Positions 1-58,600 of a stretch of 64,000 bases of DNA are shown here, one piece after another. Numbering within the stretch: the first letter of the stretch is position 1; each line of letters begins with the position of its first letter. Made by a program: the position numbers and the translations under genes. Where the stretch lies: NCBI GenBank assembly GCA_905178155.1, contig CAJINV010000016.1, positions 1,393,386-1,457,385 of the forward strand. The letters are read 5' to 3'. The DNA is from Amoebophrya sp. A120 (taxonomy: Eukaryota > Protista > Dinoflagellata). A model generated the notes under the pieces. That model did not search any database and had not been told where the DNA came from. It saw only the letters and a list, made by a program, of their open reading frames with translations.

Positions 1-1149
1 TTTTCCATCTCTTCAAAATCAATAAACAGGTTCGTTGGAGGAGGAAGGAGCAATTTGGGTAATTATTGTGAGGGTTTCGGAATGCGAATGTGGTGCTCAC
101 AGATGAGTTCCTGCATGTGCATCAATTTGGTTATTCTGTTCGAGTTCGGCTCGGGGGAGAGGTTCTCGTCACATAGAAAGCATAATAAGTGCTACCGATT
201 TTTTTCACCAAGACGCACGAAGATGGGCGCGACCGCATTTGTTGTGCAACGAAAAAATAATGAGACGGTTGTACGAAGACGGATAGTTGAATGCACTTGT
301 GATGAAAACAGAATGGAGCTGAAGTGTAAGCGACTTGTACGAAACGGCTTTGAACGACAACCACGATGAAAACGTAAGCGGCACGGCTGAAGTGGCCACG
401 ATTAGATAACCGAAAGACACGACCTCCACAGAGACCGACGCATGCTCATGCAGAAGTCCGGACAATCATCCACCGAAGTGCCATCGACATGCTGAGTCAG
501 CTGTCTGCGCGACCGATTCCGATGCTAGGCTGTGACATCAAAGCAATCGTTTCATTCTTTGACGAACCTGATGACACGAGACCAAAGAGGAGCAGGACTG
601 ACACGACACGCGTGGTCGTACAGGAGTGCTAAAGATACTGATATTCATCTCGACAAAGAAAGTTCGCGCATATCTTTTCGTAGAGAGACGATCTGTACTA
701 GTTATTTTTGTTCGTCCTTCTCGTGAAAAGCGAAAGCGGCACTGCATGTAACAAATGCTTCTATCACGCTGTGGAGGCTGCCATGGGTCACACAAAAGTG
801 GATCGGCAAGATGATATGTGTTGAAATAATTGTGGCTCTGATTCACGAAAAGGCGTAGCTGTACTCATGCAAAAGTGGTGGCGAATCTTGTATGGTGGTA
901 GGTAAGGAGGGGATCTCAACCAGCGAAACATTTATTCTGTTAGTTCAATTCTACAAAAAATCGATTTTGAAAAAAAGTCTTCTATCTCTTGATGAAGGCA
1001 TCGCTATCAACATTCTTCGAAACTGAAATTCCTCGTGTAAGCCTGTGCGAAAACTTACTTAATGCGTCGATGTTGTTTTGGTGCAAGAGCTGCAGCGTTC
1101 TTTCTCCTCTTGTGGTTTTCTTTGCCGTGTTCTTCGATTGCAACCGCCA

Positions 1150-4100
1150 TTACCCCGCCTGCGCGGTCGAGCTCGAAATCTCCGACAAATTCGATCCTTG
1201 TTTCCGGAAGGATTTCTGCCTGACACTCGTCAACCAAAATCCAAAGGACCAGGTCGCGACGTAATCCTCCCCCGCGACCTTCCAGTTCCTCTTGCACACG
1301 ATGAACGCCGACTCGTGTAACACCTCCGAGACAAACGTGTGCACGAGTTGCAGATTCGAGATGTTCCGGAGCTCCTTTTCGGAGAGCGAGTTCGGATTCA
1401 AATTTGAGGTTGCTGGTTTCTTCAAAGTATTATCGGTTTGCTGTTGAACAACCGCAGTTAGTGGCGATTTCATCACGCTTGTAGTTTTATTCCCGACAGA
1501 AGTCCGCAACACCTCGAGCTCCAGCTGTTGGCTCAAGCGGGAGAGAAATTCCGCTTTCGGTAAAATCTTGTTGTCGCACTTACACGCCGCCGCCGCGTGG
1601 TAGATCGCGGAAATGCCGACGAACAAGCCCCGGACGTCTTTTGGGAGTTTGCTGTCTTCAATCGCTTGCTTGATGATTTTCGCCCAATCGTGGAGCATCT
1701 CGGTGGTTATGAACTGCAAATAAAGTATCGCATTCGTATAATAAATGCAATTTCCTTAGCATGAGAAATAAAATTTGTAATGCTGATTCACCTTGTAATG
1801 CAAGACTTGGTTATTTTATACGAGTGCGATACTTTTGCAATGCATAGTGGTGACGGTGGAGCAGTGCTTGTCCCAGACAGGATTGCAGAGACCTGAAATT
1901 TTCATTTGTTTTTGAAACTCCGGAAGACCACATAAGACACTCCAAAGCGACAGACCATGGACAGAACAACTTCTACATGCTAAGAGCATCAAATGTAGTA
2001 AAACAATCCATTACCGTAAACCCCCTCACTCCCCGAATAACTCGTCCGGTTTCCAAACGGAATACTTCCATACGTCACTTCCGTCCTCCCCGCCTGTGGC
2101 TGACAGGTGACCTGGCAACTCCCACCACCAGCGGATAGAGTTCCGCAAAACAGCCTCGCCCGTGTCATCGCCCGGAGAAACATCGGCTCATCCAGTAACG
2201 ACTGGAGGAGAGATAAAATCAGTCTTTCTCTGTCCTTCGGCGTCGTCGGCGTTTCAAACCCTGTTTTTTCCAACGCGATCAACCACAAGTGTTCTAAATC
2301 CGACCTCTCCATTCCGAAATCCTTGAACTCGTGTAAATACTTCTCTCGCCAGAAGCTCAGCCGGTTCCTTTCCGGCCCGTCGGCGAAGATCGATTCGATG
2401 CAGGATTTGAGTTCCAGAAACGCGAAGCGCGTATCCTTTGGGCCCTTCGGAATGTTGATGAGATCCATGTCGAGGTCTCCGTTTTGGAGTAAGAATTGCG
2501 TCGCGGTCAATTCGTAAGCGGCTTCGGTTTTGGCGCCCATCCTGGTGGAGAGGAAGTCCAGGAAATTCAACCTGCCGACTAATTGGTCGATCCGGAACTC
2601 GTCGCGGAGTAACCGCTGTACCCCCTGCAGCCACTGGTCCAAATCTTCCTTCTCGTCGGGGTGGTTAAGTAAGTAGTCGCGGTTGCGGCCGGTGAAACCG
2701 ATGTAGATTCGGACGCGAGAGGAGGAGGTGGAATTCTGTTGCTGTTGACCTGTGCCAGAAAAGATCCCGGTTGGGAAGGACTGGGACTGTTCTAGAACGG
2801 AAATGGTAGGCTGTGAGTTGTGTTCTTTCGAAACAACAGCAGGCGTTTCTATCACCGCTGGTGCTAGCCCGGCTTGCGGGAAGACTGGAGGTAAAACAAT
2901 CCCCTGGCTCGATCGCTTCTGCGAGCCGCCTGGCAGCACAACAACTCCCGCTGCATTTTGAAGATTTTCCTGCTCGCTGACAGAAACGGATTCCGACGCC
3001 GAACTGTTGGCCGCTCCGGTTTGCTGCCCGATCTCCGTGGAAGTGGAATGCTCAATCTCCGGCCCATCGTCCGGGGAGTCTGCTGCGCTGGCCTCGTCTT
3101 TCGTCAAATCGACGACGAAACCCGGAACAGAGTTGCTCTTGTCATGTTGATCTTTGTTGCTGATTTTTGTCTTCGTGGAGTTGTCTTTCACGTCTTTGTC
3201 GAAATCTTCGACTGTCATAGTATCCTCTTTCGGCTTCACGACGTTGATCACTGGCAATGACGGTTCCTTCGCTATCACTTGCGACGGCCGGCTGTTCACT
3301 TTCGGCATCATCATGTTCATGCCACTGGTCATCGTCATGCTCATCAGCCCGCTCGGCTCCAATTCAAAATTCTCCATCAGCAGCTGCGCAAACTGCCTTT
3401 TTCCACTCCCCGCCTTGAAAAACGTCCGGACGAAGTCCGATTTGCTCGGGTAGCTCCATTTGGGGAAAACCTTCGACCGAACCTCCTCAGTTTCCGAATC
3501 CCGCCAAAAGACGTAAAATCCTATCTCCCCAGTCCCGACGTCCACCACATAGACCTGGTCGTGCGGATCACCTAAAGTGACTTTCTTCCGGCTCGGGTCG
3601 GAATTTTCGTCGTCCAAGTTGTCTAAATGAGAGGCGGAAGAATCCAAAAACCGTGGGTGGGTCGCACAACCTAATCCCGCGGTGTGATCCAGCGAGATGA
3701 CGGACAACCTGGAATTCTTCATCAACGCCTGCTTTTTCCGGTTGTACTCCACGTCGTCCTCTATCCTGGCGAGTTCTTTCACCGCCGCTTGCAGTTCGCA
3801 TTTGGACAAGAAGCTCTGTCTCTCTTTCGACAACACCCACTTCAGCCAGGACTGCGCAAAGTACTTGCTGAAGGGGACAATCGAAACCGCCTCCACGATG
3901 TCCTCCAAATCCCGCATTTCCTCCGGAAACAGCGCTTCGGTCCCGCAGAGAATCAACCGCTCGTGGTTCAATGAGCGGATTATGAGAGTGCACAACTCCC
4001 CCTCCCCTTCATTTGTATGGCATAAACAGCAATACAAGCGCCGGCAAGAGTACAGCTTTTGCATGGCAAATTGGCCAAGGATCTATAGTGCTGCTTGAGC

Positions 4101-7100
4101 TTCCCCCAGAACCTGTCATGCGAAAAGTGCCAAGAGGCAAAGGGAAAGGGTGGATTTGGTATTTTGCATGACAAATGAGGGGGAGGGGGAGTTGTGCACT
4201 ATCGTACGGATCTCGACTAACACGCTGGACTGGGAATTCGGCGAGTCTTCCTGGTTCACAATGACCACATCCGAGGAGCTGTCGACTTTGTTATCCTGTG
4301 CAAAAGTATCGCAGTCGTATGGCAGTCATGCATTACAAGTTTTTTTCTTAAGGTCTGTCTGCATTGCAGATTTTGTTTCTCATGCTGAGGAAATTTGTAA
4401 TGCATTTATACGAGTACGATACTTTTGCAATGCATATTTGTTCCCCACCGCCCAAACCGCGGAGGAGGAGGATTTTCTCCTTTTGATTTTCGCTGGGGAC
4501 GAGTCGGCGTTTTTCTTCTTGCTCTTTGATTTCTTCTCGGGCGTCTCATTATTTCCGGTTGACAGATACCCGGTCGCCAACGACGTCAAGCTGCGCTGGA
4601 AGAACCCTTGTTTATCAAATGTAAAAATGTCTGGGTCTGGAAGAGTCATGCTGTTTTTGCATGACACAGAAGGTCTGGCATGAAAGCTCTAGCATCACAG
4701 GTTTCAAGAACCTCCCGCAATGCCGAATCCGCATGACAAGTCCCCTATTTTGCTGACAAAAAGTGGGAGCTTTTGCTACGTATGCATGAGAGGCTTTTCT
4801 GTGTTCTGAAATACGCATTACAAGTTGCATTCTTCCAGACCCAGACATTTTTACATTTGATACTGTTGACTAGGCCTAGATTTGTTCTTCTCCTTCCGCC
4901 GATAGTCCGCTTCCTCCGCCGGGTTCAGCATTCGAATTGCGTCTCCCGGCATTACTTCCAGACCGTTGGATATCCAATAAAAAAACTGTGTTAGTGTAAC
5001 TTTCTTTGGCTGACAGCATCACAAGTTTGCTCTACATGACAGAGAAAACCTGTTATGCATGGCTTGTAAGGGAAAACAAAGCTGAAAAGAGGACTTCGTG
5101 GTTGTCTGGCATGACAGATGTAACTCTGTTGCATGTTCTGCATTACAAAGTTACACTCACACAGTTTTTTTCTTGCATATTGGAGAAGTGCAACGCCTGC
5201 GGGCTGTTCCACGTGTACCATTCTAGGTTGTTCGAAATTCTGTCAGTATTATCCATCGTCCCCATCGCGTTTGCAACAGCGCCGGAAAGCTGATACTTAC
5301 TGGAAGTAGACATGAAGTTGTTGTTATTTTCTTCTTCCGCTGATTCTGGTAAATCGTCAAAAGTGACGTCGTTTGTCAAGCTGTTCATCCCGTGATTCAT
5401 TGAGGAACTCCCGCTGTTATTGTAGTTCTGCTCCGTTCGTTTCACAAAATCCGGTCTCACCCGCAACATTTGCGCGTCGACCGCGGAGATTTCGCAAATC
5501 TGCCTTCGCCAGATCTTCTTGTCGAACCCCTCGAACGTCTGGCACATCCGGACACAGTGGTCAGACATCCGGGTAAAAGACTCCCACTCAAACTCGTGCA
5601 GACTCCTATGCACCCGCAAGACCTCCCGGATCCGGTAAAACTGGCCCCAGAAGAGCAAGACTAGAGAGACGAGCACCACTGCTGTTACAACGGAGACGAA
5701 ACAAAGACAGTCGATGTTCGATGCGCCGCAGAACCCGACTCGGCACAATTCCGGCGGATCCGGCAAGGGTGCGTCGTTGTTGTAGGGGTCGGAGAAGTAT
5801 TTCGGGAATGCGCCGATGCAGGTTTGGAACACGATGACGTTTTCAATCCCGACCAAAGCAACGATCGCCACCATGATTCTCTCGTACTGATCGTGCAACG
5901 TCGGGTACGGTAAAGATTCGATCACCGAGGGCCGCTCGATTGTGAACGCGACTAGGGTCAAGATCACTGTCAACGTGATCGACAACCGGTTCGGCAAAGT
6001 ATCGGACCCGGCGTCATAGCTGAAGGGGACGTAGAGGGAAAACGCGGCGGAGACGACCTGCAGCCCCTGGATCAGGAAGTCAAACCAGTACCGTTTCCAC
6101 CGTCTGGTGAGCAAAATGTCGAATTGGTACGCGATGTCCTCGCAGTCACACCCGCCAAAACCCGTCACACACATCTCGCCGAGCGTCATCGCGTTGGACG
6201 GCCAGGAATGGGGGGAAATTTTCCGGCTCCACTTCGCGGTGTACTTTGAGGAGTTATTGTTCGAGCTGCTATTTTTGTACGCGACGCGGAGTAGCGGGTC
6301 GATTAATTTCACTCGTCTTCTCCTCCCCATGGAAGTCGTTCCTTTGAGGAAGTCAGAAACCAGCCTGATCCGGAGTTTCAGCACGTCGAGTGGGAACCAA
6401 GCGGCGTCAATGTCCATGCAGACCAGCGTGCCCTTGAAGCGGAGACACTTGGAGAGCCAGGGAACCTCGCAGTTACCCTGGAGACCGTTGGGTTTGGTGG
6501 TGGAGAGGAGACGCTTGATTTTCGGGAACCTGATGAAGGGGATTTGTTTGCGAAGTTGTCATGCACGGCTATGCAACACAGATTGCCTTGCGTTTGCGAA
6601 TGCGATGCAGATAAAATTGACAAACAATAACATCATCAAGTTGAAATACTTATCCGAGTCGCCGTCAATCAACTCAATCGCCACGCCGTTATCCACTCGG
6701 ACCGTCGGATTGAAGAAATCCGGGTCGTGTAACACGGATTCCAGCAAGTGAAACCGCCCGTTTCTCGTGTCATACCCAAAGTGTTCGTTCTCCACCAGTT
6801 GGAAGTCGAGCCAGTCGAGAATCACGACGAAATCCAAGTCAAAGGAGGAAAGCGCTAGATTTAAGCCAGAACAATCCAGCACGTGCACCGTCACCTCCAC
6901 CTCCGGCCACTCGTCCGTGTAGTCGAAGTGCTGGTGGCCCATTTGGAGGTAGGAGTTCGGGTTTTGCGGAAGACAACTGTTGTTCATCGGGTTGGAATCT
7001 TTCAGACTGGAGGTGGTGCGGTCGAGTTGATAGTTCGTCGGGTCTTGATGTTGGTCGTGCTGGGGAAGTGGTCCTCTTGCGGAGGCTTGTGATGTTTGGT

Positions 7101-7185
7101 TGACCACATCGTTGGCGGAGCGGGCCTTGGCGATCCGGTGCGTGTGCACCTTCGGGATCAGCCGGGGGCCGCCGCCGGCTGTCAT
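1150..7185 (-). CDS. Pentameric ligand-gated ion channel (Pro-loop/GABA-A/GLIC-like) fused to a C-terminal GDA1/CD39 NTPDase-like (ASKHA) domain; 8 exons, about 1599 aa
   Basis: ORFs 6559-7233, 5143-6417, 4380-4667, 1989-4064 and 1150-1719 join in frame after removing 2 GT-AG introns (6530-6649, 1893-2014) and 5 introners plus one TSD each, giving 4800 nt. pLGIC motifs: FDLDFVVILDWLD, FFNPTVRVDN, RFKGTL..D...FPLD, LTRRWKRYWFD, NRLSITLTVILTLVAF, LPYPTLHD, four TM helices. Apyrase-like motifs: DVGTG, FTGRNR, TEAAYE, SAGGGSCQ, ATWSFG. Start codon uncertain. Confidence 0.75.
1708..1846. mobile_element. Introner, TIR family A (TGCAAAAGTATCGCACTCGTA)
   Basis: Imperfect TIR tatgaactgcaaataaagtatcgcattcgtata / tatacgagtgcgatacttttgcaatgcata; TSD GTGGT; removal gives VTTEM in frame. 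Confidence 0.9.
3981..4206. mobile_element. Introner, TIR family C
   Basis: TIR tatgagagtgcacaactccccctccccttcatttgt / acaaatgagggggagggggagttgtgcactatcgta; TSD CGGAT; removal gives EIRSLNH. Confidence 0.92.
4292..4436. mobile_element. Introner, TIR family A (opposite orientation to the 1708 copy)
   Basis: tatcctgtgcaaaagtatcg ... cgatacttttgcaatgcata; TSD TTTGT; removal gives GNKVDS. Confidence 0.92.
4613..4862. mobile_element. Introner, TIR family B (TATCAAATGTAAAAATGTCTGGGTCTGGAA)
   Basis: Perfect TIR of about 30 bp; TSD TTGTT/CTGTT; removal gives SQQGFFQ. Confidence 0.93.
4971..5179. mobile_element. Introner, TIR family D
   Basis: tatccaataaaaaaactgtgttagtgtaacttt / aaagttacactcacacagtttttttcttgcata; TSD TTGGA; removal gives FSNGLE. 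Confidence 0.9.
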
Positions 7186-7380
7186 GGTTTGTGATGCGTG
7201 TTTATCTTTTTTGTTCGGGCTGCTAGGGAACACACTAAAAGACCCTGCTACATGGGTACAGATATACTACCTAGTACCCGACTCGTGGTCGTGCTCGTCT
7301 GGCATACGACCTTACCTGACCTTGTTGTAGCCCGATCGGATACCGATCCTGAGTCCTTCACTCCATAAAAATGTTTATAT

Positions 7381-8823: not shown

Positions 8824-11690
8824 TCATGATTTACTTCCCATCACATTGAACGCCGCATACACATCCCCACCACCATTTCCATTCATCCCCCTCGTCCCAC
8901 CCGACCTCACACTGTCCTTCGAATCCCGCGGCCCGCCGTACGCACTCGGCGACTTGCTGTTGTTGTTTGTATTGGGTGCCGCCCAGAGGAATCCCCTGGC
9001 GCGCAGCTCCTGGCGGATCCGCTTCATGTCCGGACTTGAAGATCCACCACCAGGTGAACCGTTTGGATTTGTCCCCGCTCCTGCACTGTTCCCATTATGA
9101 AACGCCGCGTGTAGGTCTTCAAAGTCCTTCCACAAAACCACCTCTACTCCGTTTTCCGGTATCAAATTTTGCAGGTTCAACATGATCGGCCGGGGCCTGT
9201 GGTAAACAAAATTGTTGCCGTTGTTGTAGCTCCAGTTCGCTCCGTGGTGATTGTTAATGTTGTAGCCAGGTGGACCACCTGAGCTCGACGAACTCATGGC
9301 TCTTTGTTGGTTGTAGAAGTGGTTGTTGAAATTCGTATTCCAATTTGAACCTCCTCCACCATGTGCCGATGTTGATGAATGCTGTTGCGCCAGCGGTAAT
9401 CCTAGCCCAGGCGGTGGTATGCTCAGGTCGTTCTCATTTGCCGCGAAAGATTTCGGGACGAACGGCTCTGCGATGGCACGGAGCTGGTGCTGTGGGATGG
9501 TGATGTTGGGCCAGGGATCAGACGCCGGGACGAAATCTGGGATCGCGGATGGCTGCTGCCAGTCTGGAAAAGAATCCGCTGCGGTGTAGGGGTCCTCCGC
9601 AACGTTTTGTTGAGCAGCATGGCTACCGACGCCATCGTAGTTGTTCGCTGCAGCAGTCGCCGTATTTCCAGTACTCCAATCCGCGCCATGACCTACTGCT
9701 CCCCCCGTCGCAGAAGTTGACTGCTGCTGTTCCACCACGCCCTCCAAGCCCGGCGGCCCCGCGATCACCTCTTGCGGTCCGACACGGAGGACGGAAGAAC
9801 TGCTATCCCCATTTCCCTTCGACAAAACAACCACATCGTAGGACAAGCACCCGGCTGGATTCTGTAGCCCGGTCGTCAGATTGTCGTAGACGATGTTGCA
9901 CACAACGCCCTTCAACCCATTGTAGGGCGAAATCACGTTCTGGAGCTCTACGATCTGGCCGATGAGGAATTCATTTTTCAAAAGTGGCACGACAACCGGA
10001 GGTGGCTGGACGACAGGTTGTTGCGGGAGAGAAGCTGCTCCTGCTGCTGTGTCTTGGGAGTTCGTCCGATCTGGCGGCACGAATTCCTGCGCGGCGGGGT
10101 TCAGATCGTTGGTATCGGTCCGGTCGAAGGAACCAGGACTGATGTCGAGTTCCGGAACACCGATTTTGGTGTTTAGCCTGTGAGAATGAATTGATAATTT
10201 GTGATGGTGATATCCGACGACGCAAAGTTGGGTCATGCTGCAGCGAGAACGACACGTTGGAAACACATTAAAATGTCAAAGTCTCACGCTAACCGTGCTT
10301 CATCCGCACAAATACCTCATCACCCCGACCCCGCTGTCGAATCCGTCCCAGGTCTGGAAAAATTCCGACGGCGGATTTCTCATTTCTCCAGTTGTCAGCT
10401 CGCTGTCACTCCTTTTCACGCGATAGGATTTTGTCGACTTCGGCGTGGCTCCATCCTTCACGGAACTTCCCGATCTGCCCCGGGTGGAGAGCCATATCCG
10501 CTTCTTTTTCTCCTCATTACACTTTTGCAGGAACAGCCCCGCAGGCATGGATTTGGAGACATCCACGGGATCGGCAGGACTTATTGCACCACCAGGAGCT
10601 CCGTTTTGTGAAGTAGAGCCACCCCCATCTGCCCCCTTTGGCGAACTGGCGGAAGAACTGGACTTGTTGCCGCTCATGGAGAGCATCACGTTTGTGATCT
10701 CGTTGATGTGGATGAAGGTGTTCTTGATTGTGACTTTACTATTCCAACCGCTCCTGTTCATCAGGTTCAGCTGCCGTTCCATTGCAATTGGACTGGAAGG
10801 CAGCGACATCTGGAGTTTGGAGTCGGATTGGATCGTCGAGGTTTGCAGCGTCTGCTCGTCGTCCAAAAGCACGGCTTCCTGCAACTTCGCGCGCCGCAGC
10901 TCCACCGTCGGGCTCGTGCGAATCTCCAGAGAAGCAGTGTCCGTTGGGTTGTAGGTCTGATAGATTGATTTTGATTCTCGAGGAGGTCCTACGTGGAGGT
11001 GAGCCACTTGAACCTTGGCTCATTCAAATTCTGCATGAGACAGGTTTCCATCACCATCTCCATCTTTTCGCTCTTTATGAATCATGAAAAGGTCGCCCAT
11101 GACACAGTCATACTCACCTGTTGGTCGGCGCCACCTCCGGGCGGAGCTGGTGATGCTGTATTTGGTGAGGATCCACCTCCGGCACCTGCTTCGTATCAAA
11201 TGTAAAACAAAGTGTCTGGGTCTGGAAGAGTATAGACTTGTCATGCAGATTTTCCATGACCCATGAGGTCTGCGTCTGGAATGCGGGACTTAGCATGACA
11301 GACTCTGCGAGGCCTCTGCCATGCCTATTCTGCATGAGAGACTCCGTTCCAACGTGGTCAAAAGTGGACAGCTTTTGGCACTCATGCAACACAGATTTTT
11401 GCATGCTTCAGATTTACCATGACACGTTGCAATCTTCCAGACGCAGACTACACTTTTGCAATTCATACTTCGCGACCCGTGTCAACATCCTGCTTCCGCA
11501 ACACGTGTATTGTCCTCTCCGCCCCAACACCATAGCTTTCCGCTTTTAAAGTTGCGGAGAAATTCTCCTCCACAAACACCCGCAGCTGCTTCCGGTCGTC
11601 GGGGGAAAGCGTTGCGGGTAAGCTCAGGATGGCACCGAGCCTTTTTTTCTCCGCGAACTGCGAGATCTGTTCGAGGAGACCGTCCATCAT
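8824..11690 (-). CDS. R3H-like domain protein with an IKNTF motif and long low-complexity regions
   Basis: N-terminal LSLPATLSPDDRKQLRVFVE...SYGVGAERTIHV resembles R3H but lacks the His. Exons join across introner 11194-11467 and two GT-AG introns (about 11014-11117 and 10177-10314). Contains KVTIKNTFIHI. 3' end uncertain. Confidence 0.65.
11194..11467. mobile_element. Introner, TIR family B
   Basis: tatcaaatgtaaaacaaagtgtctgggtctggaag ... cttccagacgcagactacacttttgcaattcata; TSD CTTCG. Confidence 0.9.
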
Positions 11691-24621: not shown

Positions 24622-25927
24622 TCAGGCCAGCGGATTGAAAAAATCATCTATCGCAGTCCACACACTCCCGCCCCGATTCTTACTCCCCCCGCCAGCAATA
24701 TCAAATGCAAAAATGTCTGGGTCTGGAAGGTTGTAACTTGTGATGCGTCCTGTGGATCACACAAAAATCTGTGTTGCGTGATCACCAAAAGTTGTTCTTT
24801 TTTGACCAACATGAGCGGCAGTTTCTCATGCAGGATAGGCATGATGGGGACCATTTCGCAGTATCTGTCATGCTAGGCCCTGCATTCCAGACCTCATGGG
24901 GCACGGAAAATATGCATGACAAATGCAAATCTCGCAATCTTCCTGACCCAGACACTTTTGCATTTGATAAGCACCACCTGCACCCGCAACGGGCGCCGGA
25001 ACTGGAGCAGTCACGGCTGCCGGCGTCGCGGACACCGGCGGTGTGTAGTAGGGCGTTCGTTCGCGTTGCGCGGCTAACACCGCGGATCGCTCCTTCGCTT
25101 TGACCACAGACGCTGGCTGGCGCTCTTCCGGAAGTAGTTTGTAGAGATCCTTCTCCTCGTAGTTGTCCATTTGCAATGGCATGTCGCTGAAAAAACTCCA
25201 GTATCCAGTGCAAAAGTATCGCACTCGTACATACTAATTGCAGCCATGCATGACAGATCTATTTTCTAAGGGAAAACAGCATTACAAATTGCATTTTTGT
25301 TCTTGAGAAAATTTGTCATGCAGTTTATACTAGTAGTACGATACTTTTGCACTGCATATCCAGAAGCGGTAGAATTCTGGGAAGGACTTTTGGTGTTCGA
25401 CTTCTTCCCGGAGCTCCTGCTCGTCATCGGCCAGCTGTTGTTTTTGATGATAGACATTCAATCTTCAGCAGCATTAGGTTGTGTTTTACGAAGACAAATG
25501 GCGTCAGCAATGATGTTTCCGCATGAGAAATTGCACTCCGCATAAGTAGGAATCAATTGCAATTCGCCAGAACAAGCCCAACTACACGAACACGATGCAA
25601 TAGCAATTACATCAATACCGCAGATTTGTCAATGGTGACGCCGTTAGGTAGTTGGATGAAATCTGACAGAAACGGCCTTTGGTCGTCCTGCTCGGCGACT
25701 TTCAACGCTCGTTGGTCCGGTTTCTTCACCAAAATTTTGTCGAGGAAGTCTACTCGTTCTTTTAGCAAGTGTAATTGCAAATCCAGTTTCGCCACTTCCT
25801 TCTCCGTTTTGCTCAGCATGCACTGGTCCTCACCGAGCAAGCGGATGACGGTTCTTTTCTGGGAAGTAGTTCCGTCCGGCGGAGAGCTGGGCATGGCGCC
25901 CGGTGGAGGGGGGCCGGGGGAAGTCAT
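24622..25927 (-). CDS. Hypothetical protein with a short coiled coil; multi-exon
   Basis: Exons join across introner 25202-25358 (FYRFWSFFSD) and introner 24699-24969 (GAGGGSKNRG...FFNPLA stop), plus one conventional intron; start uncertain. Confidence 0.6.
24699..24969. mobile_element. Introner, TIR family B
   Basis: tatcaaatgcaaaaatgtctgggtctggaag ... cttcctgacccagacacttttgcatttgata; TSD AGCAA/AGCAC. Confidence 0.92.
25202..25358. mobile_element. Introner, TIR family A
   Basis: tatccagtgcaaaagtatcgcact ... agtacgatacttttgcactgcata; TSD TCCAG. Confidence 0.92.
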
Positions 25928-39558: not shown

Positions 39559-42500
39559 TCAAAAAAACATTGAAAAGAACCCGCCTTCTTCTTTATCTGG
39601 CGCCGCTTCCGGATCCGGCTCAGGTTGCAACACTGAGTCTACTTTTGGCGCACCTCCCTTCTCACCCTCTTCGGGCTCCAGTACTATCACAGGAATCTCG
39701 TACTCCGCCTCAAATTCCTTTTTGATCCCGTCGTTACTTGAAAAATCGCCCGTCAACAAATTCGTCAATCTCCTCTGTATCCCCCGCTGGTTCACCGCAT
39801 CTCCCAACAACTGTTTATGAAATGCAAAAACATCGTACTAGTATAAATCGCATGACAAATTTCCTCAGCATGAAAAACCAAATTTGCAATGCGGATTTGA
39901 CTTGAGAAAGAAATTTGTAATGCATGTTTGCAATTACTACGAGTACGATACTTTTGCACAGGATACTGTTTCCGGTTCAGCCAATCCAACTCCTTGTCGA
40001 ACAACCCAGATTATCAACTGTAAAAGTGTCTGGGTCTGGAAGAATGCGAGTTTGTCATGCATGTCTGGCATGATTCGAGAATCTGTGTTGCATAGGCACG
40101 AAAAAGCCCTCTTACTTGTCATGCAAAAACGCAGTTTGCCATGCGGAATACGTAAGACATGGCAGCCAAAAAATTTGTCATGCATAGCTGCGTACTGCAG
40201 TGCGTCTATCATTCATTTTTAGCAGCACAATTTTCCAGACCCAGACATTTTTACATTTGATACAGATAAAGGCTTCAATTCCAACGTCATCTTCTTCACT
40301 TCCTTCCTTTTCTCCAGCCCCAACCCCTTCGCGGCTGTATCTAGATTGCAAACCAAATCAAACGCCGTTCGAAATTCCTTGTCCAAAACTTCTATCGGTC
40401 GGACGTTCGCGATTTGTAACGTTTCGTCCTTCTCTGTCGCGGCGATATCTTCTTTCAACTGCTTCAAACCGGCGAGGATTAGTTTTCGGCTCATCTTGTA
40501 CTCTTCTGTCAGTTTCTCGAACGATTCCAGCTTCTGTCTCTTCGATGCAACATGATCAGGCACATACGTCCACGTCATTTTCGCAACTTTTTTCTCCAAT
40601 TTATCGCATTTACTACTCAATTCCTCGTTTTGGTTCTTCAAGAAAGAGATCTGCTCCTCGGTCAGTGAATGGGTTTTCCACAATGATTTGCAGATAATCT
40701 GCCCGTTTTCGTCGGTTTCGGAACCCAGGTGCTTGAGTAAAATCGCGAAATCGTCTTCCAGGGAGAATTTGTACGTCTCTGTTTTGAATTCTTCGTCCGG
40801 TGCTTGGGCTTCTTTTTCTTGATATTGCGGTTGGATTTCAGGGGCTTGAATTTCTCTGTCTGCGTATTCGGGTTTGGTTTCCGGGGCTTGGACTTCTTTG
40901 TCCTCTTTTTGTGCAGCAGCTTCGCCAGATGATGTTGTTGACAAAAGTGGTTTCTTCATCATGCTCGTTGCGGCAGTGAGAGTTCGCAGCCGGCCCCAAC
41001 GTGATTTTCCGGTTGCAGCTGGGGCTTCGGTAGTCTCTGCTGGTTTACTTACAGGCTCCTCCTCTTCTGCCGGCTTCGAAGCAGGAACCTCTTCTACTTC
41101 AAGCTTTACTTCCTCGGTCGTAGTAGTTCTTACGGGTGCTGCTTGGTCCACCACCACTGCTTCCGCAGTCTCGGCTTCAACAGGCGAAGGTGTCGTATCA
41201 GCCACGGTATCCGCTTCCGCCACAGTTTCCTCAGTAATCGTCTTCCGTTTTCCAAAAGAGCCGAAAGCCGCCCTTGCTACGAATCCGCCTCTTAAACGAG
41301 ACCAACCTCTGAAGGCAGGAGACGATCCAGGGGCAGGCTTGGCTGTTGCAGCTGATTCTTCCGCAGCAGGCGGCTCCGCAGCAGGGGAAGGGGTTGGCTC
41401 CTCTGCTTCTGCAGGCTTCGCTTCTTCGGTTGACAAATCCCGCACAGCAGGAGCCGGTAGCGCCACGTCATCCGTTTGGACAGCCACGGCGCCGGGCTTT
41501 ATTTCCACAGCTTCATCAGTCTGTGGAGCTTTAACTTCTGCCTTCGCAACTTCTTCTTGTTCAGCCGGCTTCGAAGTGTCATCAGGAGCTCCCGCCGCCG
41601 CCACTTCTGTTCCGCCCTCCTCGACCGGCTCCTTTTTCTTCGGAGTAAACGCTTCCAGAGCGATTTTCGCAGCGAGATGGGCGTGGAAACCTCTCCTGAT
41701 TGCGACCCATCCTCGGGAAGGGCCGGGTCTGTTCTTCTTCGGAGGTGGTGCAGTCTCTGCTTCTCCGTCAACGGGAGCGGACGCAGCTGCTGCTGCAGCA
41801 CCCACGTCTGCTGGGGGCTGATGCGCGTCTGCTGGTTCATTCGCTTTTTCAGTAGCCGTAACTGTGGCGGCATCATCTTTTTGAGTTTCCCCGTCCTCTT
41901 GTACCCCGGGAGTTGCGCTTGCGGTGGGATCTAGTTCATCGGTCGGCTTCTCTTCTGGTTCAGCAGGCTTCGTGGCCGCGCCGACGTCTTCGACAACATC
42001 AGCACTTTTCTCTGCTGCTGCAGTATTCTCTGCACCCTGGTTTCCCACGGGTGCAACTGGGACAGCCGCATCAGAAGGGACAACTGCCTCTCCCGCGACT
42101 TCGGCTTCGTCGGTTTTCTCTGCAGTGGTCGCGTCTCCATCTACCGCTTTTGGCTCTTCCGCCGGTGCAGCAACTCCAGAAGCAGGCGCTTCTTTTTTCT
42201 TCCCAAAGAACATGCCCATTCTGAGTGTCCCCTTCGTTTTCGACCAGAATGAGCGTTTTGTCGCCGCGGGCTTCTCAACAGCTGGCTCTTGTTCCTTCTT
42301 CTCCTCCGGTGACTCCGTAACAACAGGGCCTGGCGAAGGCTCAACAGCCTCAGGTGACGCAGACGCTACAGCAGCAGCTTCATCAGGCTTTGGCTCTGCA
42401 GCAGTTGCAGGATCTTCGGCGTCGACAGGTTTTGGTGCTTCAGAATCGGGAACAACACCTGCCTCCGCTTCTTTCGGCGCGTCTCCAGATGAAACAGGTG

Positions 42501-45201: not shown

Positions 45202-48200
45202 TCATCTGTTTGGCGATCTGCCAACATCGGCACTGAGGCTGCCTCGACCGACCTCGGGAGATGAACCTGCTGAAACTGCAGCCGCAGTGGAGCTAGAGCC
45301 CCTAGTACTACTCTCCCTGTTCATCTGACTGCCACTGTTTCTCTTCACCTGGGTGTACTGGGATTCTTCCGCCTCCGCCTCTGCAACTTCTTTCTCCAAG
45401 TACTCGACAAACTGCCTACCAATCGACGTCCGACCAGTAGAACCGTTCGCTGTCACACCATCTTCCGGCGAGTCGTTATCCAAATTCACCGGATTCGCTT
45501 CGTTTTGTAACGTGTGGAACAAATGACTGCGGTTCAAGCCGATCTGTTCCCGCTCCTGAATGTCGAAGCCGAGGGAATCCGCGAGTTTGGAAAGAAGCTC
45601 GAGCTTCTGGGCGTGGTGCCTGATAGATCATGTTCATGATGTATAACGTGTTTGATGTCATGGCTGACCACAAACAAGTCGAAATGTTATTCTCATGCGA
45701 ACGTGTACGTCATGTCTTGCCATAATGGATGGGCCCTTGAAAAGAAGCACAACGAAGTACTCTGAGTCAATGCTCTCCAGCATCTTTCTGTGCCTTCCGG
45801 CGCCGGAAACGTGCAGCAGATTGTCAAGGAGAGAGCGGGCGAGGACTCTGTCGACTTTGCAAAACTGGATGAGGCTATCGCACACAATCCGTCGGTCGAC
45901 TTGGTAGATGCGGTCCTGATTTTTTTTTTGCGACAATGCCAACATGCTTGAAAAACGCATAAGAAACCGGACGTGCAAAGGCAAAATCGCAGCACACTTG
46001 TCCTCTTACCTGTGATTCGCGTTTCATCTTCTCGAAGCACTGATCCACCAAGCTGGAAAAGTGATCCCGCTCCTGCCGCAGCTTCATGCAGGACTCCTGC
46101 CAAACGGCAGACTGGTTTTCCAGCTCCTCTATCCGTGTTTTGTCGGTGCTGGACCTGATAAAGATAAATGGCTGCAATGGCATTTCATACATGCATGGGA
46201 AGCGTATCCTGTGAAGCATCCTCGACGACATCAGATGGAATCTGAAGAGCAAACATTCATGCATTTCATCTTTTTTATTACCTGACTTCATCCTTCGTCA
46301 CGTTTTCATTTTTCTTCCGCACCGTCTCTTCCAACTCTGCCACCTGAATCTGCAACGCTCGTTTCGCTTTATTCGCTATCGCGACAGATTCCTGCAGCCG
46401 GTCCTGCTCCTCCATATGCTCATTCTGCAACAAATCCAAGGCCTCCTGCAACTTCGTCGCCGTTTGCTTCGAATCAAGCACCTGTTTCTCAAAATTATCC
46501 CGTTCTGCGGTTTGCTCTATCAATTTCTGCTTTGTCTTCGCCAAGTCCTCCTCTAGCTGCTGGAGTTTCAAGTCATTCTGCTGGTTGTTCTTGTCGTTTT
46601 TCAACTCCTGCAAGACCTGCGCGTCATTCCGGTGGTCGTTGACCCAGTTTTGGAGTCGTTCTACCTCTATCAAATGCAAATGTGTCTGGGTCTGGAAGAT
46701 TGCCAGGTTTGTCATGCATATCTCGCCCGACCCATGACGCCTGTAATGCATGACCTAGCATCACAGATTTTCATACGGCTTTCTGATGCCTTTTCCACAT
46801 GAGAAATGCCCTCTCCGCGTAGCACAGACTGGAGTTGTCTTGCCTGTCATGCAATACAGATTTCTTTCGAGTCCGAAGATAGCAGCACAAATTGCATCCT
46901 TCCAGACCCAGACATATTTGGAATGCATAACCTCGTGATTCTGCTTTTCGTACCGCGTCTGCCATTTCAGGTTCATGTCTTCTAACTCTGTGATCCGTTG
47001 CTTCCAATTTTGCTCAATTTCTGTCTCTAATTCCTCGTTGTGCGTGACTAAGGAGTTGTATTCATTGGTCAATTGGATCAGTTGCTGGTGGTAATCCTTG
47101 GACTGCTTCTCCCAGTGCTTCGCCATCTGGTGCGCTTCGGATTCGGGAATCGATGATGTTGAGGCTTCGGTTGGCGCCGCTGATGCGTCATGCTCAACCG
47201 CGGCTGCGGCACCAGAAGGTGGTCCCGTTGTAGTTGGGGGCGGACTGCTGCTCGGTGCTTCCTTTTTCGCGACGCTAGAAGAGGTTCTCGCTATTGGCGA
47301 CGCAGCAGCGGCGTCTTTGGACCTCCCCGGTGACACATTAGCGCCAAGCTTCGAAGTAGAGAACGTCAGCTCCTCGCTGGTGTTGCTCGTTTTCGACACG
47401 GTTGGTGGCTGCGGGTGTATCAACCCCGGAGTTGTGGTCAACAAGCTCGGCGTCTTCGTCTTCGAAGGTGAGTTCTGCCTCGATGAAGAAACCGAGTTTA
47501 TCGCGGTACTACTACTAGAAGCAACGATCCTGGAGAACGAGCACTGAACCGGCCGCATGCTATCCAAGACCGCATACAACGCCCCAAGAGATTCAAACGC
47601 CACCGGCTGCCCGTCGATATGGGTTAATTCATCGTTTAACCGAATTCCCATCCGGTAGCAGGCGACTTCCGAATTATCTGGGTTATCCACCGTTTCGGAT
47701 TTTTTCACGAAAATCCGCGCTGGCCGTCTGTCCAAACCTCGGTGATCCCCGTGGAAATCTTCGTCGCTGCTGTTGTAGTTGTCCTGCATCAGGTAGAACT
47801 CCAAACCTAGAGGGCCTTGCCCCATGATCATCGCGGTGTACTCGTACGTGGAATTTTTGGACGGGGATGAGGTTATAGGATTTTGCGGATTTACTTTACT
47901 GCTAGTAGAGGACGACGCGGGGGTGTTGCCGACGAGAAGCACACCGCGTTTCTGGCTTACAACATGATCTGCTGGTGGAGCAACGAGGACCGGAGGGGGC
48001 TCAGTCTTCTGGCCCGACGTTTTATTTGCAGGCTGCAAAGAAAAGCTGAGATCAGGCGAGGAGTCTGGAGTCGGGAATGCTTGTTTCGCGGTGCTGCTCT
48101 CTGGCTCGATATTGTTCGCATTCTCTACACTTGGGGCGGGAGCCGCCGGGGCTGTGCCTGTCGCTGCAGGATTCGTCGTGGTCCTTGAGCTCGGTGTAAA

Positions 48201-55672: not shown

Positions 55673-58600
55673 TTATTCCTCGGAGTCAGACAATTCCTCG
55701 CTTTGTTCTTCTTGCGATGAGCCCGCGTCATCGAAAAAGTCGCCGGATTCAGAATCAGAATCCGCATGATCCGCACTCGGTCTCTTCTTTTTCTTGTCGA
55801 TACCGGCACGAGAAACTGGTACTGGCGTATCATCTGCAACACTCGTATTTGATTTCATTCGCTGCAACAAACCCAATCCACTTTCGTTTTCGACGTTCGC
55901 ATTCTGCTCGTCGAGGGCATCTTCCTCATCAACACTCGCTTCACTGTTTTTGTACCCAAGTGGCGCGTATTCGCTTCCCGCTGCACGACTGGGTTCGAAC
56001 TCCTCATGGTCGTCAGCGAATCGGTCGCTGTCGGAGGAATGTTCGGAGATCTCGTTCGCGTCTTGAACGCTGTGGTCTCCAGCAGCCTGGTCCTGCTCCG
56101 GTTTTTTTCCCTGCACTTGCTGTCGCTGTGTACTATTTTCCTGCATCAAATCCAAGCTATCACTCGTCAACTTTCTCCTTTTCGACGAGGAGGCATTCTT
56201 CTTTGCCGCACCGTCCATGGACTCAAATCCAGATCCGAGATCCCTCTGCCGCTTCTTTGCAATCGGTTTCGTTGCTCCATGCACTTGCTCTTCTGCTGCG
56301 GAAGAGCAACTGGTGGCGTGATGTTGGTTTTGCTGTTGTATTTGAGTCACGCTACCGGCCCTGCCTCTGGTCGTTGTACTAGTTTTCTTCGCTTCAGATG
56401 TATTCAAAACCGTCTTCTTCAGAACCTTCTGCGCCGCTTTTTTGATCTCCATCAACCGCGCAGCCTTTTTTCGCTCCACGTCCTCCTGGAAAATCTTTTT
56501 CTGGTTCATCTGTACTGACGCACTACACGCCGGCGCGACGGTACTATCCTGCTTCATTTCTTCTTCAGCAGCCGAAGGTGCTGCTGCACTGCAGGTGGTC
56601 GCAGCTGGAACAATCTCCTCAGCGCCTGCCTGTAATTCGGTATGATCCTGAAAAACCACAGGAGCTGCTGCAAATGCGTCGCCCTCGTCGTCGTCGTCGA
56701 CCGAAGTTTCTGCATCGACGTAGTACGTTTGGTCTCTCGCAGTTTCTGCAGCGACTGCTTCAACATCATCTTCATCGACGGGTGTTTGATGTTCCTCTTC
56801 ATCGACTTCCATTTCCGCTGCGTTTTCGTTGTCCTCCGCAGCTTCATCATCAAGAGCAGACATTTGATCTTTGGTTTCTGCTTGTTCTGCCGCGTCGCGT
56901 TCTTCTTCTTCACCATCGTCAGCGAGCACTTGGTCGCCGGCGGGGGCCTCTTTCTTGGGCTCTTCAACAACTTCTGGCTCTGCTGCCGCGTTGGCTACTT
57001 CTTTATCGTCACAGGACGAGATTTGGGCTACTTGTACTTGGTCGCTGAGCGCAACGCTCTCAAGCTGTTGCTGTTCTCCGTCTGCTTCAACTTTGTTTTC
57101 GCTTTCTTCGGGCGTCTGTGCCTTGTGTTCGAGTTGTTCGTCCTCAACTGGCATTTCCTCGCCATCTGCTTCGGCCTTGTCCTCCACCGCTTGTTCATCA
57201 TCAAGCTCTTCCTCTACCACCTCGCCATCGGCTTCCTCTGTTTCACCCTCCGCCATTTGCGCTTCTTCATCTATTTCTACCATATCGCCTTCTAGTACTT
57301 CGCCCTCCACCAGTTCATCTTCTTGGTCCTGTAGTTCCTCCTCCTCCTCAAGAATGACGTCCGGTTCCTCGTAGTCAATGTACAAAGGCTGGATCAGGGA
57401 CTTACTATGCCGTAACAAATACGGGTCAAACGGGAAGTTGTTGCTGTTCAAATTGTACGTAAACCACTGGTCATACCGCTCCGGATCGAAGGTTTTTTCA
57501 ATCACGGGCTGCAATCTCTCGACCAAATTCGCGTTCGAAACCCCGAGTGCTGGATCCAGCCCGTAATCCGCGGTTTGGACGCAGCCAAAGGTTCTGCAAA
57601 ACTCCTCTTTCACAGTTTGAAACACCCGATAGAGCGGGTAGGTGGGGGAGTCGAGAACCTTCATGAACCCGTATTTGAAAAAAAGTGCCTCCAGGTAGGT
57701 TTTCGGCTTATTCATTTCTTCGTTCGGAGCTTGGTTTTCATTTGCTCCAGCCGCAGTCGCTGAAATAGCCGATGCAGCTGACGTTGTGCGTTCAATCGTG
57801 CTACTTCCACTGCGGTTCAACATCTGCTTTGCTGGGTTGACATTTCGATTGCTGTTGTTGTCCTTTTTGCTCCTCGAAAGCGAATCCGAGGACGAAATCG
57901 GCCGGGAGAATTCTTTTTTCTTGAAGATCATGATGTAGCAGATCACCTGGACCGCTAAATGAAACAATTCACACTCTTCGTGGATCGTCTCAATCCTGTC
58001 CGTTCTGATTTCGTTCCCTTCCTTATCCCGCACGATACCCATGAGCGATTCGAACCGCTTTAAATTCGCCAGACACCACTCGATCAGGTATTTCGTGGTC
58101 TTCAGCGCATACGTCACCGAGATGAACTTCGCGCGGACTAGAATGGATCCGAGGTAGGACACGGCGATCTTCCGGGTGGGGATGGTCGCGGTAGCGGAAC
58201 GGCCGGCGTGCGGCTCGTTACCCTTTTTCTTGTTGTTGTTCCCGCTTGTAGAGGACGCCCCTCCGTCTACGCCATTGTAAAACGTCGTCAACAGCCTCCG
58301 CAGGAACTCCTCGCAGAACAGAGGATGCAGGCTGCACAGGTAGAAATAGACGAACTGCACATTTTTGGAATTTTCCAAATTCCCCCGCTCCAAAAACAGT
58401 TGCTGAAAGACGGAGAGCAAGTATCCGATTAAAGTGGCTTTGCCCGCCTGGGGTAAAAGTTTCTCCAAAGTCGTTTTCTTTGCGTTTTTGAAGTCGTTAC
58501 GATTCTTGTCGACGACACTACTTTTGATGGCTCCTTCGCCGGGCTGCGCGGAAGATGTTCTTGCGAGTTGAGCAGAGTTGGTTGAAGTAGACGAGTTATC

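Follow-up and report, generated by a model that had tools for sequence, protein, structure and literature searches.

A fusion of a predicted pentameric-type channel and an NTPDase/Ppx-like ASKHA domain in Amoebophrya sp. A120 and other dinoflagellates, with signs of inverted membrane topology

A 64,000-nt stretch of DNA from Amoebophrya sp. A120 (contig CAJINV010000016.1, positions 1,393,386 to 1,457,385; in the following the window, to whose numbering all coordinates refer) carries on its minus strand, at 7185-1150, a gene that joins a predicted pentameric-type channel subunit to a C-terminal domain of the ASKHA fold. The gene consists of eight exons and seven introns (Table 1), is spliced as one transcript form with a single reading frame, and yields a product of 1599 amino acids (aa). 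Judged from its sequence features, the channel is probably inserted upside-down, with both the β-sandwich and the ASKHA domain facing the cytosol. The best explanation that we can offer, with about an even chance of being right, is that the cytosolic ASKHA cleft binds nucleotide or polyphosphate and gates the pore from inside.

The spliced translation is identical to CAD7969538.1 (P0001 in the following), an Amoebophrya sp. A120 protein labelled ‘unnamed protein product’, which was found as a 100% match with exon 2 as query. The open frames of the minus strand are interrupted by AT-rich stretches bearing long terminal inverted repeats. As claimed in the original prediction, which was made from the DNA sequence alone, removal of seven introns keeps every junction in frame, and retention of any single one cuts the product to 208-1425 aa. 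All seven exon joints are present in four of four transcript-like runs (two samples of one study); the RNA status of these runs is a software guess and no run is recorded as RNA, their contigs nevertheless skip every intron. The channel and the C-terminal domain are spanned together by single contigs (5431, 5476 and 5350 nt). Contigs from three runs of one sample cover 900-7294, 900-7353 and 900-7212 with even depth and all junctions, and in the second sample one contig (900-5543) crosses the fusion point. Transcript contigs continue through 5180-3600, where an end of transcripts had been named beforehand as speaking against a fusion. Run X5 shows the unspliced form with a summed contig depth of up to 4.5e5 at introns versus ~45 at exons, and the raw-read run X8, with four partial reads at the locus, is uninformative. 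The transcribed 5′ leader contains an in-frame stop codon ahead of the first ATG (7185). The N-terminus is therefore complete and no signal peptide is hidden upstream, in agreement with the earlier remark that none is evident.

The fusion is not restricted to Amoebophrya. A profile search of 1.84 billion representative sequences gave 582 matches at E ≤0.001, of which the best 150 were examined together with P0001 (n = 151). Full-length channel-ASKHA fusions account for 32 of the 151 proteins, 27 with all five motif blocks of the ASKHA domain and five in which one divergent block was missed. Another 42 are channel-only proteins, part of them fragments, and five contain two tandem ASKHA modules; the remainder includes single soluble ASKHA modules or fragments. 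The search for the same architecture in dinoflagellates, proposed earlier, was thus successful: among 24 proteins looked up, the named sources of fusions are Amoebophrya A120, Gymnodinium smaydae, Polykrikos kofoidii and Dinoflagellata sp. MGD, core dinoflagellates included. The 31 other full-length fusions are continuous reading frames, several of them on transcript-sized contigs, and the intron-free, transcript-derived members are 1060-1200 aa long. A quick tree, built from 67 channel domains, places the fusions in one group (support 87, not starred), within which a single short channel-only protein falls; this group is sister to 21 channel-only proteins (support 95), and all 55 fusion and channel-only domains are separated from 12 bacterial channels (support 100). 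The tree is compatible with a single origin of the fusions, which it does not prove. Several relatives deviate from these types. Members of the channel-only sister clade (e.g. P0069, P0084) have long polar N-termini, and in P0091 and P0102 of the channel-only clade M4 is followed by a fused membrane domain that resembles VTT/DedA (E ~1e-5, which does not reach the curated cut-off). P0067 consists of a channel and the first ASKHA motif only, followed by unrelated sequence; it is either a degenerate member or a mis-assembly.

The channel half is predicted by its fold to be a Cys-less pentameric-type channel subunit. A fusion relative of 1066 aa, P0004, was modelled with 48 sequences (pLDDT 82.8, pTM 0.78). 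Its residues 5-386 resemble RDL, GluCl and GABA-A receptors (Z 21-22, root-mean-square deviation (rmsd) 3.8-4.7, 299-326 residues aligned) and also match glycine receptors, GLIC and ELIC (Z 18-22 across solved receptors; Foldseek E 2e-13). P0001 itself has four hydrophobic segments; the channel part gave a profile match to ELIC (E 1e-7), and the Atlas comparison supports the channel family for the N-terminal part (0.94). No significant Pfam family was found on the exons or P0001, the best fusion relatives reach 24-25.7 bits for Neur_chan_LBD and stay below the cut-off of 26, and the first sequence searches of the PDB returned weak channel matches only (E 0.04-0.09). At position -1′, where Glu and Pro-Ala are the ion-selectivity signatures, 23 of 32 fusions have Asn, which matches neither. 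The receptor signatures are well kept. The Pro-loop [F/Y]PxD has its Pro, its Asp and Phe or Tyr in 32/32 fusions each, the Arg before M1 (R321 in the window protein) is present in all 32, and so are Arg or Lys at 0′ and Leu at 9′ of M2. An M2-M3 Pro occurs in 23/32, in addition to an invariant Pro at 19′. The Cys-x13-Cys of metazoan-type Cys-loop receptors is absent, as the β-sandwich of the fusions has no invariant Cys. The M1 proline, whose kink is listed for 77% of the superfamily among the pLGIC (pentameric ligand-gated ion channel) features in section 7 of PMC4795631, is not conserved either (≤1/32 per M1 column). With the Cys-less Pro-loop receptors, as represented by ELIC, GLIC, sTeLIC, DeCLIC and the protist pLGICs treated by Jaiteh et al. 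2016 (PMC4795631), the fusion shares the β-sandwich with four helices, the FPxD loop, the pre-M1 Arg and R0′ and L9′ of M2. It differs from them in lacking a signal peptide and the M1 proline, in its acidic, cysteine-paired M3-M4 loop and predicted reversed orientation, and in its C-terminal ASKHA domain of ~450 aa. DeCLIC also has an extra domain, but according to its PDB title this is N-terminal.

The C-terminal region of P0004 (residues 577-1066) was modelled as an ASKHA fold of the Ppx/NTPDase branch, as had been expected. It resembles PPX/GppA phosphatases with Z 19.2 (rmsd 3.1, 264 aligned) and NTPDase1 with Z 17.8 (rmsd 3.1, 301 aligned). The compact soluble relative P0065 (pLDDT 91.7) ranks NTPDases first (Z 19.1 with rmsd 4.0 and 313 aligned, 18.2, 17.9) and PPX next (17.0), and other ASKHA families reach Z ≤8.5. 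Since its fold stands between NTPDase and Ppx/GppA, the module appears to be a separate branch between both families. GDA1_CD39 matched neither the exons nor P0001 nor the relatives scanned with Pfam, and Ppx-GppA matched weakly in two soluble relatives (E 0.0009, 0.012). The profile checks proposed for both halves thus gave a sub-threshold Neur_chan_LBD, no GDA1_CD39 and a faint Ppx-GppA signal. No NTPDase or PPX chain was among the best 60 matches listed in the PDB search, and for the ASKHA part the Atlas comparison brought nothing of use (best 0.81). A query with one single protein, which reaches close relatives only, found no prokaryotic relative of the ASKHA module.

Following M4, five motifs occur on the minus strand in the order of the apyrase conserved regions (ACR) 1-5, as the original prediction had listed them: DVGTG (3542-3528), FTGRNR (2696-2679), TEAAYE (2528-2511), SAGGGSCQ (2135-2112) and TWSFG (1254-1240). 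Among the 32 fusions, the ACR1 Asp (D892) is kept in 31, the ACR2 Thr in 30 and Arg (R1179) in 26, the ACR3 Glu (E1231) in 28, with its register set by the motif and not by residue-level superposition, the ACR4 Gln (Q1368) in 30 and the ACR5 Trp (W1567) in 32. The ACR3 catalytic Glu and the ACR5 Trp belong to the NTPDase consensus. The ACR4 Asp, reported missing before, is absent in 32/32 fusions (Ser 22, Ala 9, Gly 1; S1361 in the window protein), and two extra acids are conserved, E897 (30/32) and E1235 (32/32). With the GDA1/CD39 NTPDases the fusion thus shares the two-lobe ASKHA fold (Z 17.8-19.1), the five motifs in ACR order, the ACR1 DxG, the ACR3 Glu, the ACR4 Gln and the ACR5 Trp. It differs from them by the missing ACR4 Asp, the extra Glu in ACR1 and after ACR3, the EF-hand insert, the predicted cytosolic location, the absent GDA1_CD39 match and an identity of 13-16% in structural alignments. 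With Ppx/GppA and yeast Rtg2p it has the fold (Z 17-19) and the cytosolic location, here predicted, in common, and of the key PPX residues listed in PMC11234463 (D7, R86, E114, D136, E143) the first three have equivalents in D892, R1179 and E1231. In contrast to Ppx/GppA, the phosphate-2 Asp and Glu (D136, E143) are replaced by S1361 and Q1368, TWSFG stands in place of the REG motif, and the domain is fused to a channel. A plain PPX was rejected, as was a plain apyrase; against the latter stand the absent ACR4 Asp, the missing GDA1_CD39 match and the intermediate fold. Of the ‘apyrase/NTPDase-like domain’ claimed originally, the ASKHA fold of the Ppx/NTPDase branch therefore stands, and membership among the apyrases would go too far.

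The altered site is unlikely to be that of a decayed pseudo-enzyme, as had also been considered. The identical site and motifs are found in soluble modules, i.e. stand-alone proteins of 349-429 aa, which suggests that the site is under selection. Both DXG aspartates hold metal in NTPDases according to PMC12489842, and the extra conserved Glu residues may rebuild this metal site. It is conceivable, although rather unlikely in our estimate, that the ASKHA domain of an inverted channel is a working nucleotidase or polyphosphatase, which would turn over its substrate beside the channel, making or removing a ligand of the β-sandwich, with no direct pull on the gate. The three retained PPX equivalents together with E897 and E1235, the same site in the stand-alone soluble proteins and the long, variable linker agree with such an enzyme. 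However, the phosphate-2 Asp is absent in every fusion and the PPX Glu is changed to Gln, one subclade (P0035, P0039, P0044) retains the domain with a visibly eroded site, and the pTM of P0004 weakly suggests a fixed arrangement of the two domains.

Between ACR3 and ACR4 the module carries an insert of ~100 aa, kept by position in 32/32 fusions. In soluble tandem relatives the insert can be recognised clearly as a pair of EF-hands (E 1e-10 in P0031), and canonical EF loops are present in four of the 32 fusions, in one of them within a longer insertion. The whole-protein model of P0004 has in this region helices at 788-800, 814-820, 828-837 and 852-859 and strands at 811-813 and 849-851. Calcium binding by the window protein's own insert was rejected, as the insert is degenerate and scores no better than shuffles. 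None of 15 soluble relatives has a signal-peptide-like start, and weak Dpy-30 and IQ matches occur among them, which fits a cytosolic origin of the module. Five soluble proteins of 1040-1140 aa (P0028, P0031, P0032, P0033, P0040) combine tandem ASKHA modules, EF-hand inserts and weak Dpy-30 and IQ matches; they form an unannotated family that is possibly flagellar or calcium-regulated. The EF-hand-derived insert, the cysteine pairs described below and the size of the family go beyond the original prediction.

The orientation of the channel was judged from 32 fusions and 25 channel-only relatives, set against 16 bacterial channels as controls. The controls were derived from 31 loci of 802 genomes, after 11 loci without complete frame or loop motif and four near-duplicates had been dropped; of the 42 channel-only proteins 28 were aligned and three dropped. 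Signal peptides were assessed through a hydropathy proxy in place of SignalP, with two N-truncated fusions omitted (n = 30). A signal-peptide-like start was found in 1/30 fusions and 0/25 channel-only proteins compared with 15/16 controls. The net charge of the M3-M4 loop is -4.2 in fusions, -3.3 in channel-only proteins and +1.4 in controls, and the loop is net negative in 32/32, 24/25 and 1/16, respectively. At least two Cys are present in this loop in all 32 fusions and all 25 channel-only proteins and in none of the 16 controls. Lys and Arg are in excess on the β-sandwich side in 31/32 fusions, 25/25 channel-only proteins and 4/16 controls. The sole invariant Cys of the whole fusion are two in the M3-M4 loop, C416 and C441 in the window protein, which also carries a second pair, C446/C453. 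In fusions the second pair is complete in eight, absent in 22 and represented by a single Cys in two; in channel-only proteins it is complete in 22, absent in three and never single. It is scattered across several branches of the tree. Joint gain or loss of this kind is as expected of disulfides in an oxidising compartment. Because the 25 channel-only relatives show the same signs, the inversion may predate the fusion. An inverted topology, originally listed as an option only, is thus supported by the signal test, the loop charge, the Cys pairs and the EF-hand-bearing and soluble relatives. The only bacterial control without a signal-peptide-like start, L136 (G575:C8:103665-107258), reflects either a wrong start call or a real loss.

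In the canonical orientation, the β-sandwich and the ASKHA domain would be extracellular or luminal without a recognisable signal peptide, and the protein would be a receptor for outside nucleotides with an ecto-apyrase-like part. This is the orientation of characterised family members, whose M3-M4 region is called cytoplasmic in PMC4795631, and surface NTPDases are described to face outside (PMC7954995). One of the 16 bacterial controls, L136, likewise has no signal-like start, and one Asn-x-Ser/Thr site is conserved in 26/32 ASKHA domains. Its Asn, however, is part of a motif shared with the soluble proteins. Considering further that a signal-like start is missing from 29/30 fusions and 25/25 channel-only relatives, that the charge bias is reversed, that Cys pairs are confined to the M3-M4 loop whereas the large domains lack any invariant Cys, and that EF-hands and cytosol-like soluble relatives exist, we regard the canonical orientation as unlikely.

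For the upside-down channel gated from inside we propose the following course. In the absence of a signal peptide, M1 would act as signal anchor and its basic flank would stay in the cytosol, together with the β-sandwich and the ASKHA domain, while the acidic, disulfide-bonded M3-M4 loop would come to lie outside or in a lumen. The ASKHA cleft would bind cytosolic nucleotide or polyphosphate, upon which its two lobes would close and pass the movement to the pore. Due to the missing ACR4 Asp, hydrolysis would be slow or absent, with the reservation that the extra Glu residues might restore the metal site. Calcium control could be added in some paralogues by an EF-hand within the ASKHA insert; the loop is degenerate in the window protein. 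We hold it slightly more probable than the contrary that lobe closure upon ligand binding reaches the pore and that hydrolysis is slow or does not take place. For the family as a whole we suggest tentatively, at a little under an even chance, a dinoflagellate clade of inside-out channels, one branch of which is gated by a fused NTPDase/Ppx-like module that reads nucleotide or polyphosphate and in some members calcium. The pTM of 0.78 for the two-domain model weakly favours a fixed domain arrangement. Rotation of the NTPDase lobes in catalysis is described in PMC7954995, and yeast Rtg2p, an ASKHA protein whose Ppx-like domain putatively binds ATP, is a precedent for signalling use of the fold (PMC5417653).

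Several observations weigh against this proposal. The folds of the window protein are inferred via P0004, which is 33% identical to it. The topology counts stem from related family members and are not independent. The controls are all bacterial, with no eukaryotic canonical receptors among them, and as they stop directly behind M4, they make the contrast in flank charge there look larger than it is; 4 of the 16 are likewise richer in Lys and Arg on the β-sandwich side. Instead of forming disulfides, the cysteines close to M3 and M4 could bind metal or carry palmitate, as in the GABA-A γ2 subunit. For the EF insert of the window protein, 160 of 300 shuffles score as high, the profile-profile probability is 12% and there is no pattern match. 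The linker between channel and ASKHA domain has ~400 aa here, 17.5% conservation and low confidence in the model, which agrees with a loose tether no less than with a gate. Channel-only relatives share the topology signs but have no ASKHA domain, so that members of the clade can evidently do without it. PPX enzymes are less active once the phosphate-2 Asp is lost (PMC11234463, PMC5417653).

It is improbable that the channel is gated otherwise (by calcium, pH, voltage or a ligand of the β-sandwich), with the ASKHA domain as a scaffold that carries the EF-hand or docks the channel to a partner, e.g. a flagellar structure. The EF-hand-derived insert kept by position in all fusions and canonical in four, the weak Dpy-30 and IQ matches in soluble relatives and the existence of channel-only relatives are in line with it. 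The phosphate-binding motifs, however, are the best-conserved positions of the ASKHA domain, and most members, the window protein among them, have a degenerate EF loop. Finally, a merger of two adjacent genes by gene prediction is largely refuted and was rejected: the linker does span four non-canonical introns, the runs and the public gene model may depend on each other and an assembled contig does not stand for one molecule, but the even-depth contigs over all junctions, the crossing of the fusion point in the second sample and the 31 further fusions leave it next to no probability.

Table 1 Features of the channel-ASKHA fusion gene in window coordinates
Feature	Position	Strand	Remarks
Exon 1	6648..7185	-	start codon, polar N-terminal extension (aa 1-85), first half of β-sandwich
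Intron 1	6528..6647	-	120 nt, GT-AG
Exon 2	5180..6527	-	remaining β-sandwich, M1-M4, start of linker
Pro-loop WFPLD (F224-P225-x-D227)	6385..6399	-	Cys-less
M1	6025..6084	-	preceded by basic residues incl. R321; no M1 proline
M2	5941..5985	-	predicted pore-lining helix, R0′, L9′
M3	5824..5877	-	predicted helix
Acidic M3-M4 loop	5707..5823	-	C416 and C441 invariant; C446 and C453 co-varying; predicted luminal/extracellular
M4	5647..5700	-	followed by basic residues
Intron 2	4966..5179	-	214 nt, non-canonical, 34-nt inverted repeats, 5-nt direct repeat
Exon 3	4864..4965	-	linker
Intron 3	4609..4863	-	255 nt, non-canonical, perfect 32-nt inverted repeats
Exon 4	4437..4608	-	linker
Intron 4	4287..4436	-	150 nt, non-canonical, inverted and direct repeats
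Exon 5	4207..4286	-	linker
Intron 5	3976..4206	-	231 nt, non-canonical, 45-nt inverted repeats
Exon 6	2015..3975	-	end of linker, most of ASKHA domain
ACR1/phosphate-1 DVGTGE	3525..3542	-	D892, extra E897
Low-complexity insertion	2724..3374	-	~220 aa, first ASKHA lobe; much shorter in most relatives
ACR2-like FTGRNR	2679..2696	-	T1175, R1179
ACR3-like TEAAYE	2511..2528	-	E1231 at likely catalytic position; extra invariant E1235
Insert of ~100 aa	2160..2471	-	position of EF-hand pair in relatives; no canonical calcium loop here
ACR4/phosphate-2 GTLSAGGGSCQ	2112..2144	-	Ser replaces Asp
Intron 6	1893..2014	-	122 nt, GT-AG
Exon 7	1847..1892	-	46 nt
Intron 7	1703..1846	-	144 nt, non-canonical, repeat family shared with intron 4
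Exon 8	1150..1702	-	second ASKHA lobe, ACR5 TWSFG (1254-1240), stop codon

GT-AG ends are restricted to introns 1 and 6. The other five are non-canonical and repeat-bounded, with inverted repeats of 29-45 nt and direct repeats of 4-6 nt. Further copies related to intron 3 lie in the window at 11193-11468, 24699-24973, 40011-40263 and 46668-46919, and copies related to introns 4 and 7 at 25202-25362 and 39816-39965. Non-canonical ends, terminal inverted repeats, short direct repeats and many copies are the marks of Amoebophrya introner elements. Those described by Farhat et al. 2021 (PMC7789003) likewise have terminal inverted repeats and 4-6 nt direct repeats; the motifs quoted there are 8-20 nt long and thus shorter than the repeats found here. 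Introns of this type are already known for Amoebophrya from that paper and are nothing new. All 11 open frames of at least 400 aa at 7300-64000 lie on the minus strand like the fusion gene, which fits the unidirectional gene clusters reported for Amoebophrya (PMC7789003). A Pfam scan of 13 long frames of the window left 12 without match; the exception, at 55676-58864 on the minus strand, is a homologue of the RNA polymerase I initiation factor RRN3 (E 2.8e-25).

TRPM2, with a Nudix-like sensor, and TRPM7, with a kinase, are channel-enzyme fusions that carry a cytosolic enzyme-fold domain. The fusion described here is similar in having such a domain, possibly a nucleotide sensor, on an ion channel; its channel and enzyme folds are unrelated to theirs. 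For inverted topology, heliorhodopsins are described as a clade of a known membrane-protein fold that is turned around (10.1101/2025.11.27.691015), an unrelated fold and an analogy only. No description of a channel-ASKHA fusion or of an inverted channel of the pLGIC family was found in searches of PubMed Central CC and bioRxiv, in line with the earlier statement that no example was known. Jaiteh et al. 2016 (PMC4795631) report alveolate pLGIC members, state that terminal regions were discarded and call for a study of domain architecture; their supplement may hold members of the fusion clade. The parts of the protein are known folds, and its architecture, predicted orientation and ASKHA branch appear to be undescribed.

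Pentameric ligand-gated channels are known for receiving signals from outside. If an upside-down clade exists, it would show that the coupling of domain and pore works with the membrane sides swapped, and one could test directly how gating depends on voltage, on lipid asymmetry and on where the selectivity filter sits. With its fused phosphate-binding module the protein would be a kind of channel-enzyme that the literature searches did not bring up for the pLGIC superfamily, and the ASKHA module together with its soluble EF-hand relatives would be an unannotated branch between apyrases and exopolyphosphatases. As the family escapes Pfam, the presumed signalling system is invisible in current dinoflagellate annotation. 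The intron-free members of 1060-1200 aa make the family testable in oocytes and by cryo-EM. If our reading is true, dinoflagellates would have made an intracellular second-messenger channel from the neurotransmitter-receptor fold and an undescribed ASKHA family.

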